A stretch of 64,000 nucleotides of DNA from Eledone cirrhosa. Lineage: Eukaryota. The stretch covers positions 197,718,001 to 197,782,000 of the forward strand of contig OZ024743.1 of assembly GCA_964016885.1 (NCBI GenBank). The letters run 5' to 3'. The notes below the pieces were generated by a model. It searched no databases. It worked only from the letters and a program-made list of their open reading frames with translations, and had not been told where the DNA came from. Positions 5,691-51,903 of the stretch are shown piece by piece. A program made the translations under genes and the position numbers. How positions within the stretch are numbered: position 1 is the first letter of the stretch; each line of letters opens with the position of its first letter.

Positions 5691-5731
5691 CGGTACTGAC
5701 GATAGCTAATAATCTTGAAACTAGTACATCG
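5691..5731 (+). ncRNA. Minimal hammerhead ribozyme (CTAG loop)
   Basis: cggta-CTGACGA-tAG-ctaataat-CTt-GAAA-CTAG-TA-catcg; one mismatch in stem I. Confidence 0.7.
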
Positions 5732-6153
5732 TTCCTTTGCCAGTGTTGAACAAAAGGGCAACGATGGTTGCTAAACACAGTACGGCTTAATTCGGGATGT
5801 TTGTTTACAAACAAACCGAGCATTATAATAAATGTTCGGTAAATCCATACGTACATATATATATGTGTGCATGTATGTATATATATATACATACTACTGT
5901 ACGTATGTATACATATATGTATGTACGTATAAATACTTATATATATATATATATATATATATATATATATATATATATATAGCGCCAAAAACAATTTTGG
6001 CGTTTCTTTCTTCTATCTTTTTTGTTCTCATTCTATCTTCTGAAGAAGGACTAACGTCCAAAATATTAAATGTCTTTTCGTACTATATCGAGCGTTATAT
6101 ATCTTCATTGCGCTGTATCATTTTTCTGTGTTGTTTTCCATTTATGTTTCCTG

Positions 6154-6313
6154 CACACACACACACACACACACACACACACACACACACACACACACAC
6201 ACACACACACACACACACACACACACACACACACACACACACACACACACACACACACACACACACACACACACACACACACACACACACACACAACACA
6301 CACACACACACAC
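6154..6313. repeat. (CA)n microsatellite
   Basis: Directly visible. Confidence 0.97.
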
Positions 6314-8475
6314 ATGAGAAAAATAATAGGGCAAATACTTCTGAATAGAATTATGTAATACATGATAGAAAATAGTGGTTTAGAAGTTAACTCATATCAT
6401 TATCAACAAAAAGGTTGTTGAATCCTATTGGTTCCTCCTCCCCTGCAATCTTTGCTACTTCAAGCGTTTAGAATGCAGGAATATTTACCAGATAATTTGA
6501 AGATAAAAACCACAGATCTATTTATCATTTGAGCCTTTGAAGAGAGATTTCTGACAAACTGAAATCGAATAAAACGAATAAAATTCACAGAATAAAAATA
6601 GAAAATCAAATTAAATATTAAAAAAAAGTAATTTAACGTAATATCAAATTCCAAATGCAATATTATGAGTGTGGAATAGTTCTATTAATGAGACAAGACA
6701 AATTTGATGCAACTGCGAAAGAAAAATATAAATGATTTATCAAGTGTTAAAGCTGATACTCGTTGAACTTAAAATGGGTTTTCAACTCAACGCCATATTC
6801 TTTGCCGTGCCATTGCTAAACGGACATTCGTGGTTTTGTGAAATATTAATTTACCGCTTCCTGCCATGAATTTAATGAACAACCACTGGAAGTTAACTGG
6901 AATGTCAGCAGATTAATATAAATTTGTTAAACGTTATACGAGGATTAGAAATAGCAAGATGTGATACAGTTATAGTAATGTTATTTTTCATTTAATTTTA
7001 TTTCTATTAAAACAGGATTTTGAAGTTCACTCGACCTAGCTATGATAGTTTATCAAATCACTTACAACATTGTTGCCACTTATTCTTGCTAATTTTCAAG
7101 TCTGACTTTTAGAAAGGTTACATTTGTGAAGAGATTTTCATTAATGTTTTACATATGACTAACTAATACATCAATTATTTGCGACCTTAATATCTCATTT
7201 ATGGCAAAGATAATTCACACGACTACAAACATTTATAGATTGAAATATGTATCAATTAGATCAGCAATTTTCTCTTATGAATTGCTTTCAAAGTATTATT
7301 TCGTATTTTGATGAACATTTATAATGTCATTATTGTTACTGTTGCCCTTAGTTAATAATTATAAAGCAAACACAGGATCAAAGGCATTCCAACCATGGCC
7401 AACCCGTCTTAGATTTACCTTGAACTACATTATCTAATGTATCAGGTTTTATTTGACAGAGATTTGATTACTATTTTTAGCACATCACGCAACCGTATAG
7501 TGTTTCTTTTGTTACCTCGTATTTCAATAAGAGAAAATAATTTGAACTGGGAGTGGTTCACTGTGATGATTGAGCAGTCTTCAAGTAGATTAGTGGTGTG
7601 AGGTGAATTGATTTCGTCAAGAAACAGAACCTGCGTTGCGTACAGCTCACCTGCAGCCTATCCCTTAATCTAAAACATATTTTTTTTACTAATTAGCTAT
7701 TTTAATTCTTGGTTTAGAGAATTAAGCATAATCGCGCCATTTGCGAGAAATTTCCTGAAATTAGTTTGCAGAAGCTTTTCGCTATGTTTTAGATACAGAA
7801 TAGAAATATAAGGTGATACAAATCTAGACTGGCCCGCATTGTTACACTAGTGGAACTATGACTTCAATAGTAACTACAATAGAGCTGAATGTATTTAAAT
7901 TTTTGAGTCCAAGACTGGTATGTCATATATATCTAGATTGCCGGAAATATGAACAATAAGGGGATATTTCAGTTTTGATATATTAATAGTTTGAATCAGA
8001 AAACCCTATAGTTTATATTGATTACTGAATATGGAAGTGATTAAAGGTAGGAATAATATTTTAATCATTGAATACCGAGGATATAATTACATAAATGTAT
8101 GAGTGACTCTGGAGAAATAACTATTTACAGGGACAAACGAAGGGTTAAAGTGAAGGAACTTATGACCGGAAAGCGAACTTCTTAACGTAAAACCATGTTT
8201 GAGCTAGGAAATGTATTGTATGTGTACTATTGTGTGTGCAAATTTTAACGAACTACAGACGCACACACACACCTACACACATGTACAAACAAACACACAC
8301 ACACGCACACACACACACATTTAAGTTTGTATATATATATATATATGGAAAGTTATATTTAAATTGTTGGGTTACAACTAGTAAATATTTATAACTGATA
8401 TAAAAGCACTCAACAAGTATTTGGAGTATATTTACGATATTATATAAATGGAAACTATATTTATAAAACCATATT

Positions 8476-50114: not shown

Positions 50115-50430
50115 CCCACCTACTCAGTCCATTCCTTGAGCCACCGACGTGCTATTCCCACTCGCTACCAATTCTATTGCTACTACAATAGTCTCTGTTC
50201 TTTTGAGATGTATGCTCCCGTGCTAACGTTTCTCAACAACGAACGACACATTCGTCTCAACTCTTCCTTACCCCCTATGATCATCCACTTGTTGTAGACG
50301 ACACTATAATCAACATGTTCAGTTTTTCTTTTCTAGAACATTGGTCTTTTGGAATTCTTCCCCTATCCATATTTATCTTTATCCTATAATCGCCAGCCTT
50401 CAATTATTCAAGAACAACCTGATAGAACTC
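50115..50430 (+). mobile_element. Old CR1/Jockey-group LINE 3' fragment
   Basis: HSLSHRRAIPTRYQFYCYYNSLCS...FFSRTLVFWNSSP...SLQLFKNNL resembles the L.HRR..A.L..FY.YY...C / FF.RT..LWN.LP...L..FK post-RT motifs. Confidence 0.6.
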
Positions 50431-51867
50431 AAAGTTTCGAGGTGTCAGATCAAATCAATAAAAACCTTCTCTATACTAGACTCTATTGCACCCCTTTCTA
50501 TATAATATACCCCACCACCCTTCCAGAATATGTCCGTTAGATATCTGCGCGCACGCGCGCGTGTATATGAATTTAGATGGCATATAAGCTGAGCATTAAT
50601 AGAATGTCTTACAGTACTCGTTCTGTGTTTCTCTGTATAAAGTTCAAATTCCATCGGGGTCAACTTTGACTTTCAACGTTATGGAGTGGTCAAATGGAGT
50701 ACTAGATCAGTATTGTATGTGATTTTTCTTTCTTTATCGCCTCCATTCTCTATCTCTATATAACTCATTGTACTTGTCGCTCACTTTCTGCAATCAATCA
50801 GCTTTTATGAGGTATCGAAAGTGTTGGATTCCGTGTGGCTGGAAATAAGCTGTATATATATATATATATATATAAACACGCAAACTCACACACACACACA
50901 CACACACACACACACACACACACACACACACACACACACACACACACACACACACATATATATATATATATTTATATATATATATAGAGAGAGATAAAAT
51001 TCCAACCGTGGTGCCAAGCGGTTTCGGCTTCAGATATTACATATCTCTATACCCACGCTCGCTGCATCACCCCATGCATTGAGTAATCCCATGATTAGTA
51101 CTCTCTTCAGTCTCACCACTGTGAACTCTCTCTCTCTCCCCCTCTTTCTCTCTCTCTCTCTCTGTGTCACTCAGTCTCTCTCTCTCTCTCTCTCTCTCTG
51201 TGAAAGTATGTGGCTAAGTGGTTAGAGAATTGGATTCTCAATCGTGAGGTTGTGAGTTCGATTCCTGGACCAGGCGATGCGTTATGTCCTTGAGCAAGAC
51301 ACTTTATTTCACGTAGCTCCTTCTACCTGGATTTGCAACCGATAGATAGTATTAGCAATTGGAAAGACCAACGGAAATATTGTTTCCTCGGTCCGATTTG
51401 ACGAAAGTCGATCTTTCCTTTATATATCCGTATGTGGCTGAGAAAAAGGGGTACTGAATGCCGAAGCAGAGGTTTTAATATTCATTTATATTAAGGCTAA
51501 AAAGTGTGTCTTTCCCCAATTTCTCTAATACCCTGTCCATTATCACACCCCTAGATTCCTATCACTTTTTCTTCGCTCATAGCTTCGTACTTACATGCAC
51601 ACACACTCTTTTACTTACATATACACACACACGCACACTCATGCTTTCGCTTGTGCTCAAGCATAGCTCTTTTTACAAAACGTTTTTTTTTCCATTTCAG
51701 GTAGACGCGTGCCATCATCCACTTTTCTAAAAAAACAAATCATACACAAAACGCGAGCATGTTTTGTAAGAGATGTCAACATGAATGGACCTATTATTTT
51801 TATCTAAAACCATTTTTTCCAATTCCATCCCGCCCGTCCCCTTAATCTTTTTTTATTTCTCATTCTT

Positions 51868-51903
51868 TCTTCTGATGAAGGACTTGCGTCCGAAACGTTA
51901 AGA
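51868..51903 (+). ncRNA. Minimal hammerhead ribozyme, family A
   Basis: TCTT-CTGATGA-a-GGAC-ttgc-GTCC-GAAA-CG-TT-AAGA within element 51650-51990. Confidence 0.88.

Follow-up and report, generated by a model that had tools for sequence, protein, structure and literature searches.

Do the palindromic stem III loops of the hammerhead ribozymes in this 64-kb stretch of Eledone cirrhosa DNA (the window) make up a family-specific dimerisation code, as the initial annotation proposed, or do they meet a symmetry requirement of dimers? We addressed this by comparing the hammerhead families of the window with one another and with those elsewhere in the same genome.

Hammerhead copies in the window

Eight loops had been placed between the GAAA box and U16.1 of type I hammerheads (CTAG, TATATA, CCGG, TGATCA, CTAATTAG, CAATTG, GTAC and CG), and all were found there, from 5690–5732 (+) to 51903; all eight are Watson–Crick palindromes. 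That they stay palindromic with the flanking A and T added is true, if trivially so, because these bases are the A15.1–U16.1 core pair. The core boxes CUGANGA (or its U3–A8 variant), GAAA and UH occur in type I order, together with stems I and II, in 13 window copies.

The CTAG family is represented by a type I copy at 5690–5732 (+; loop 5721–5724, site UA at 5725–5726), in which changes private to this copy disrupt the first pair of stem I (5695) and one pair of stem II (5713). In four contig runs, no variant at 10% or above fell in the CTAG loop or at the invariant core positions, four loop positions being too few for significance alone. TATATA copies lie inverted at 8476–8541 (−; loop 8486–8491) and 8711–8776 (+; loop 8761–8766; stem I of eight pairs), and a further one is at 37392–37453 (−; loop 37402–37407). 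The CCGG copies carry the U3–A8 core variant, one at 8922–8954 (+; loop 8946–8949), where stem I is down to three pairs, and two inverted at 12222–12259 (−; loop 12228–12231) and 12339–12376 (+; loop 12367–12370). Inverted copies are likewise found for TGATCA, at 10907–10964 (−; loop 10913–10918) and 11348–11405 (+; loop 11394–11399), and for GTAC, at 39770–39808 (−; loop 39777–39780) and 39867–39905 (+; loop 39895–39898). The CTAATTAG copy at 13694–13773 (−; loop 13701–13708) has a long stem II loop, and the CAATTG copy at 27427–27463 (−; loop 27432–27437) has a stem I arm of three pairs, cut at the inversion junction, compared to five in most copies of its family. CG copies occur at 39288–39326 (−; loop 39294–39295), with a broken stem I, at 41459–41494 (−; loop 41465–41466), inverted relative to a copy with a mutated GAAA box at 41811–41846 (+), and at 51868–51903 (+; loop 51896–51897), the textbook minimal form with G10.1–C11.1 present and an additional A after A9. 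Four divergent pairs in the window are intact; since its close pairs lie on opposite strands, these copies cannot dimerise in cis.

Palindromy extends to all eight loops annotated but not to every copy present. A decayed TATATA-family copy at 40697–40757 (+), absent from the initial annotation, has the non-palindromic loop TATAAA (40705, +) and lacks U16.1. Six decayed copies in the window, none previously annotated, belong to a family whose non-palindromic loop is 14 nt long; they lie at 1882–1982 (+), 9065–9223 (−), 14290–14368 (−), 14374–14475 (+), 14511–14591 (−) and 32993–33080 (+). We also identified a TATATA-family copy at 60471–60533 (−), beyond the annotated range, whose loop has grown to the 8-nt TATATATA (60525, −), a decayed copy at 37981–38096 (−) of a family with an 8-nt loop self-complementary through G·U only, and at 59471–59541 (+) a 3′ fragment that belongs to a second CTAG-loop family, whose flanks are unrelated to those of the first. 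Three other motifs were set aside, the one at 34189 (−; loop GG) having a stem I of one pair and no family match, and those at 3723 (−) and 36707 (−) being without stem I. An Rfam profile scan of the window returned no hammerhead family among the 150 of 215 matches listed, which were mainly microsatellite-driven matches to miRNA models under gathering scores. Repeat-finder output for the window was also dominated by microsatellites.

G10.1–C11.1 at the stem II base is present only in the CG and CCGG families and absent from six of the eight window families, where the base is U/U (CTAG, TGATCA, GTAC and CAATTG), C/A (CTAATTAG) or A–U or G·U (TATATA). These six are filed as variants rather than strict minimal hammerheads; a similar U/U flank appears in the Hydra row in excerpts of PMC4209133.

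Loop palindromy and predicted pairing between copies

We searched with a loop-blind descriptor, in which the loop is unconstrained and the position of U16.1 is set by stem I and not by the loop; it must allow unpaired bases beside stem II, as most families are otherwise missed. With a stem I of at least four pairs it gave 13 matches in the window, all 13 palindromic. In 790 kb of random stretches of the same genome it gave 75 matches, 41 of them strict palindromes, versus 0–2 in each of ten dinucleotide shuffles. Loop-masked clustering at a BLAST score cut-off yielded 29 family clusters in the ~950 kb scanned. The palindrome enrichment across genomic matches that the initial annotation had suggested checking was borne out: 15 of 22 multi-copy families have Watson–Crick palindromic loops (0.99 expected) and a further two pair through G·U, the modal loop being non-self-complementary in five. 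Family 12 was scored non-palindromic on one arbitrarily chosen copy out of four that differ, and its palindrome has probably decayed. For the eight window loops, the chance of palindromy if independent is 3.6e-12 (full loops) or 2.6e-9 (central 4 nt only), figures that overstate the case because the families are partly related. Copy totals of large families are exact-pattern counts and lower bounds, with at least 11,894 for the first CTAG family and at least 5,167 for the second, which forms tandem arrays of ~467 bp. In a GAAC family, the non-palindromic GAAC loop reaches at least 12,916 copies versus 34 of the palindromic form, and a perfect palindrome is therefore not required for amplification.

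Stem III of the eight window loops has a predicted energy of +1.5 to +6.0 kcal/mol in the monomer, or is impossible, compared to −1.7 to −9.0 kcal/mol for helix III in the homodimer. By these predicted energies, all eight window families combine self-complementarity at 15.2–16.2/loop 3 with instability as a monomer hairpin.

We consider it probable that these are type I hammerheads from the pLTRs of Penelope-like elements (PLEs) or their derivatives, and that the palindromic loop is a symmetry requirement of the dimer and not a barcode. The pLTR (3′ repeat) of many PLE families and non-autonomous derivatives would be the origin of the motif, and the window copies would be 5′-truncated, often inverted and partly decayed PLE end-pieces. 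A loop of 2–8 nt would be too short to close a stable stem III within a single molecule. Instead, strands would be exchanged between two copies, which most plausibly share a tandem transcript: copy one would supply stem II, the core boxes and the 5′ arm of stem I, copy two the 3′ arm of stem I together with UH, and both loops would pair into a 4–10-bp helix III. The palindrome would follow because strand exchange between identical copies demands a self-complementary loop. Palindromes of any sequence would serve, as would those pairing through G·U and apparently certain imperfect ones, and each lineage would inherit its loop, which would change only slowly. That unrelated families would seldom react with one another would be a side effect, due mainly to the need for stem I to match as well. 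These families may undergo hammerhead cleavage by such a strand swap, and the hammerheads may act in processing tandem precursors.

A double hammerhead was reportedly described by Forster et al. in 1988 for newt satellite 2 and ASBVd. In that system (cited in PMC4209133 and PMC7229834), as proposed here, a weak helix III is rescued by two tandem copies, and the dimer design of PLE hammerheads with a palindromic loop is itself already published. Excerpts of PMC4209133 (Cervera and De la Peña, 2014) propose dimeric (double-hammerhead) cleavage for metazoan PLE minimal hammerheads, report that these cleave poorly even as dimers, and give the consensus 'GAAAN Palind NU H' (their Fig. S3). The initial annotation's premise that minimal hammerheads with a palindromic loop 3 cleave as dimers fits those excerpts and our genome counts. 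Shared between the hammerheads in these excerpts and this genome are type I topology with a short helix I and a palindromic loop 3, the U3–A8 core variant, the additional base after A9, an occurrence as single copies or opposite-strand copies 100–700 bp apart, and several families with different loops per genome (CGCG and GGCC in Aedes). Relative to the same excerpts, this genome differs in having more families with 4–8-nt loops than the CG-type majority of Fig. S3, a high density (75 intact matches in 790 kb) and a large PLE family with a fixed non-palindromic loop. The PLE variants of Lunse, Weinberg and Breaker, as excerpts of PMC6765202 describe them, likewise have a very short palindromic stem III, dimeric cleavage and a tandem PLE layout. 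From excerpts of PMC7229834, axolotl HHR_Amex2, in which a U·U mismatch sits at the helix II base, cleaves better as a dimer, and axolotl non-LTR retrozymes form short tandem repeats, as do loci L061, L079, L082 and L042 here. In these sources, the newt, ASBVd and axolotl systems have canonical helix I and II sizes, loop 1–2 contacts and demonstrated circular RNAs, whereas our data are sequences. This genome adds a dense set of PLE hammerhead families and good comparative support for the dimer model.

Loop sharing and specificity between families

The initial annotation further held that each family has its own loop, forming a family-specific code. In its strongest form, the loops of co-resident families would be selected to differ, as an orthogonal code against cross-activation or cross-cutting, which we regard as improbable. 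If true, transposon families would be telling self from non-self at the RNA level, and the system would be a source of orthogonal ribozymes that cleave in trans. The eight window loops do all differ, and none of the 56 ordered cross pairs among these families is predicted to fit in both helices. Orthogonality within the window is thus upheld as a model prediction, but not its attribution to the loops, since stem I alone blocks 55 of the 56. Moreover, loops are not private to families, CTAG, CAATTG and CCGG each being common to two and TATATA to four, and one family uses two loops while the GAAC family has a non-palindromic one. Families share loops as often as expected by chance or more often: identical loops were found in seven of 28 pairs of 6-nt palindromes (0.85 expected) and in two of 21 pairs of 4-nt palindromes (2.0 expected). 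Because the clusters depend on a BLAST score threshold applied to loop-masked sequence, the TATATA pairs F1/F6 and F18/F26 may consist of distant subfamilies instead of families unrelated to each other. CCGG persists in two PLE lineages, with 43 of 88 positions identical between their endonuclease domains; the second of the CCGG families was entered as 15 copies in the pairing and statistics, the motif being seen at 13 of the 15 loci and CCGG in 11. The palindromic loops as a family-specific code are therefore not supported.

Among 31 families, 34 ordered pairs have a compatible stem I and the loop blocks 24 of these, as a code would have it. Nonetheless, loop compatibility is more frequent in stem-I-compatible pairs (10 of 34) than in the others (94 of 896), the opposite of displacement, although the pairs are not independent. 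A TGCGCA family has an 8-pair stem I in common with a TATATA family, so that the loop is their sole separation. Elsewhere in the genome, cross-activation is predicted in both directions for two pairs of families. A selected specificity switch restricted to PLE relatives sharing stem I (TATATA/TATGTA versus TGCGCA), blocking activation or cutting in trans, with the families of the two predicted pairs as cross-activating groups that keep both stem I and loop, is likewise unlikely. The evidence favours loop specificity as a by-product rather than a selected code. Natural family pairs such as these separate loop specificity from stem I specificity, and the large non-palindromic-loop family offers a test of whether a palindrome is needed at all. 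A survey of literature titles and abstract beginnings, a coverage that lies outside Lunse 2017 and supplements and does not imply absence, found no heterodimer or orthogonality test.

Linkage to Penelope-like elements and probable pairing of the loop as RNA

Hammerheads lie on the same strand and 3′ of GIY-YIG sequence in the CCGG family (1.05–1.45 kb; L105, L112 and L135), the GTAC family (~390 nt; L120 and L047) and, at five loci, the GAAC family. PLE linkage is thus seen for two of the eight window families (CCGG and GTAC); the window itself has no GIY-YIG match. An intact 1096-codon reverse transcriptase plus GIY-YIG frame was found at L160 (RVT_1 alone by Pfam, with the GIY-YIG end from a separate match), with no hammerhead within the stretch examined. 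Among 68 groups at random loci, 50 are single copies, 13 inverted only and five have same-strand repeats. Same-strand tandem arrays of 311, 467, 528 and 592 bp occur elsewhere in the genome, the 528-bp one in L082 being of a CTAATTAG-family relative; short tandem repeats with one hammerhead each occur in the CTAATTAG, both CTAG, CGCG and CTACGTAG families, such repeats being absent from the window.

The ribozymes could instead be vestigial or parasitic passengers, with ancestral palindromes inherited and families amplifying regardless of cleavage. The fixed non-palindromic GAAC loop would fit this, as would an endonuclease class (9 of 30 loci) with no own-strand descriptor match within 1.5 kb, a CCGG family with a stem I of only two pairs, and the Naiad PLEs, which thrive without hammerheads and whose authors raise the idea of hammerheads parasitising PLEs (PMC8557442). 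Against it, many different 2–8-nt palindromes require repeated pairing-preserving double changes, and stem I shows covariation in the CTAG family, where one of its pairs, across 10 copies, is A–U in four, G·U in three, U·G in two and C–G in one, a covariation score reached by six of 500 shuffles and weak alone. Also against it, one family has amplified TATGTA, which keeps pairing through G·U (21,472 copies), beside TATATA (16,239), but not the mirror C·A form TACATA (74). We accordingly give passengers little credence and retain the dimer symmetry reading. This G·U versus C·A asymmetry implies RNA-level pairing at the loop centre, for which a monomer hairpin would have no need; the TATGTA excess may stem from few founder events.

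Loop palindromy thus looks to act at the RNA level. That it is a DNA-level feature (endonuclease or protein sites, by-products of PLE-end inversion, or TA microsatellite) is very unlikely and largely refuted: inverted duplications abound (of the 18 multi-copy groups at random loci, 13 consist of inverted pairs only), TATATA resembles the TA repeats of the genome and background 6-nt palindromy is 4.9%, but the midpoint of the palindrome falls exactly halfway from A15.1 to U16.1 as placed by stem I, the loops are separated from inversion junctions by tens to hundreds of bases, and the G·U loops, strand-asymmetric as counted above, are not DNA palindromes.

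Hammerhead motifs in the window and genome

All eight palindromic loops listed in the initial annotation were recovered inside type I hammerhead motifs, with GAAA on one side and U16.1 on the other, in copies spanning from CTAG (5690-5732, +) to CG (ending at 51903), but the list was selective and left out other copies in the window. Searching the window by family located six decayed copies, all from one family, whose 14-nt loop is non-palindromic, and one copy whose loop pairs only through G·U. A second CTAG family is represented by a fragment, and the TATATA and CG families also have decayed copies. 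A descriptor that set U16.1 by stem I pairing and disregarded loop sequence gave 13 window matches with stem I of at least four pairs, all 13 palindromic; lowering stem I to three pairs added two further copies, and the copies at 5696 and 39322 were missed owing to private changes. The window, at G000:C4:197718001-197782000, is 36% G+C with many microsatellites, and the animal assembly spans 3.0 Gb. In 79 random 10-kb stretches of this genome (790 kb), the descriptor matched 75 times, with 41 strict palindromes, compared with 0–2 matches in each of ten dinucleotide shuffles. Hammerhead motifs are real and very common in the genome.

G10.1-C11.1 is missing from six of the eight window families, where U/U, C/A or A-U takes its place; in five (5690-5732, 10907-11405, 13694-13773, 27427-27463 and 39770-39905), an unpaired base stands on each side of stem II (U/U or C/A) and is conserved among copies. 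These forms resemble those in the Hydra row of Fig. S3 of PMC4209133 and axolotl HHR_Amex2 (PMC7229834).

Self-complementarity of stem III loops

Loop-masked clustering of 112 descriptor matches yielded 29 families, or 31 (22 multi-copy) on adding a second CCGG family and the window CAATTG family, in which 19 of the 20 best matches fetched carried CAATTG and one had a broken core. Loops were Watson-Crick palindromes in 15 of the 22 multi-copy families (0.99 expected), G·U-paired in two and neither in five. As rough estimates for isolated helices, monomer stem III of the eight window loops came to +1.5 to +6.0 kcal/mol or was unformable, and the homodimer helix to -1.7 to -9.0 kcal/mol.

The strongest support for RNA-level loop pairing is the genome-wide count in the TATATA family, where TATATA occurs 16,239 times and TATGTA 21,472 times versus 74 for the mirror change TACATA, with the caveat that amplified variants may stem from few founders. 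TATGTA and TACATA are equivalent as DNA and as a monomer tetraloop, and only TATGTA allows dimer pairing (tandem U·G). Moreover, one stem I pair covaries in the CTAG family, likewise in public contigs. Together, these results make selection for self-complementary RNA pairing well supported. In PMC4209133, palindromic 15.2-16.2/loop 3 is a consensus feature, with several loops inside one genome, and dimers are reported to have low activity and a monomer none; the review PMC6765202 concurs. The earlier inference of dimeric cleavage from such loops is sound, agrees with our genome counts and was already published in both.

Predicted partner choice and the proposed loop code

With A15.1 of one copy pairing to U16.1 of another, stem I would become intermolecular too, in agreement with the double-hammerhead model, and each half would pick its partner via stem I plus helix III. 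We scored ordered cross-family pairs in silico, requiring at least four contiguous pairs that begin at the junction. The eight window families make 56 ordered combinations, and not one was predicted to fit both helices, in line with the orthogonality claimed initially, but stem I alone ruled out 55 (helix III alone, 53). In the full set of 930 ordered pairs, stem I by itself ruled out 896 and helix III by itself 826, and 10 were predicted to fit both, including F1/F6 and F18/F26 (all TATATA-loop families) in both directions. Loops were compatible in 10 of the 34 pairs with compatible stem I versus 94 of the remaining 896, pairs that are not independent, an excess that fits common descent better than displacement. 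On the side of the initial reading, the loop was predicted to rule out 24 of these 34, and to be the sole barrier between the TGCGCA and TATATA families.

The further claim that each family has its own loop did not hold. CTAG is common to two families (at least 11,894 and at least 5,167 copies) that have unrelated flanking sequences, TATATA to four clusters, CAATTG to two, and CCGG to two PLE (Penelope-like element) lineages with 43/88 identity between their endonuclease domains; in the second lineage the motif was found in 13 of 15 loci, 11 with CCGG, and stem I has just two pairs. The TATATA family itself carries two loops (TATATA and TATGTA). Another family, PLE-linked (250–350 nt 3' of GIY-YIG-like sequence in five loci) and exemplified by L040:8987-9035 (+), has a non-palindromic loop as its fixed form, with GAAC in 12,916 copies genome-wide versus the palindromic form in 34; its predicted dimer helix would contain a tandem A·A mismatch. 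Selection for orthogonality would give less loop sharing than chance, and we found 7 of 28 pairs identical among 6-nt palindromes (0.85 expected) and 2 of 21 among 4-nt palindromes (2.0 expected). Judged from these sequences, a loop code beyond a predicted by-product is not supported. The 7-nt loops CCACTGG, CCTCTGG and CCGCCGG (loci L037, L053, L052, L076 and L040) have a near-neutral monomer hairpin (+0.4 kcal/mol), and their predicted dimer would have a central mismatch.

Linkage to Penelope-like elements and copy arrangement

A genome search for the GIY-YIG endonuclease domain gave 150 scored matches out of 10,596 candidates, from which 30 loci were extracted. The window CCGG family lies 1050–1080 nt 3' of the domain in two of the three loci that make up its endonuclease class, and it is also 3' of the domain in L135; the GTAC family lies 386–396 nt 3' of it in L120 and L047. 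No coding partner was found for the other six window families in these 30 loci. In another endonuclease class (L097, L099, L101, L104, L106, L108, L114, L117 and L119), 60/86 identical to a hammerhead-bearing class, there were no descriptor matches on the domain's own strand up to 1.5 kb 3' of it, and the ribozyme has possibly been lost or strongly decayed. Locus L160 has an intact 1096-codon PLE frame (75-3362, +), encoding reverse transcriptase with YLDD, plus GIY-YIG at the C terminus, with microsatellite on its flanks and no hammerhead in the stretch examined around the frame.

The random set comprised 68 locus-by-family groups: 50 were single copies, 13 inverted pairs only and five had same-strand repeats (periods of 311, 467, 528 and 592 bp, plus one pair 5.2 kb apart). 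This arrangement agrees with what PMC8557442 and PMC4209133 describe for PLEs, namely truncation at the 5' end, partial tandems and an inverted copy alongside. The window's four intact close pairs are divergent, and pairing within one transcript is therefore impossible for them. A 467–468-bp hammerhead-bearing unit of the second CTAG family forms large inverted arrays at G000:C1:30831839-30840569 and C1:56387560-56397723 (seven copies in one orientation followed by 13 in the opposite one, and 11 followed by at least 11, respectively), which are retrozyme-like.

Other window repeats include long inverted repeats at 5361-5556 and 12255-12343, with miRNA-hairpin scores below Rfam thresholds, the latter being an inversion junction that joins two CCGG hammerhead copies. 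Elements at 17983-23527, 54854-58173 and 16763-17503 (all +), split over several broken frames, have endonuclease-like and RT-like motifs, judged by eye; the window's long reading frames resemble LINE-type elements and are separate from the hammerhead finding. Dispersed repeat families of 190–300 bp (1400-1699, 25142-25441 and 38891-39190; 16123-16519, 31753-32099 and 34489-34681; 47833-48020 and 61374-61561) are probably SINEs or other element fragments.
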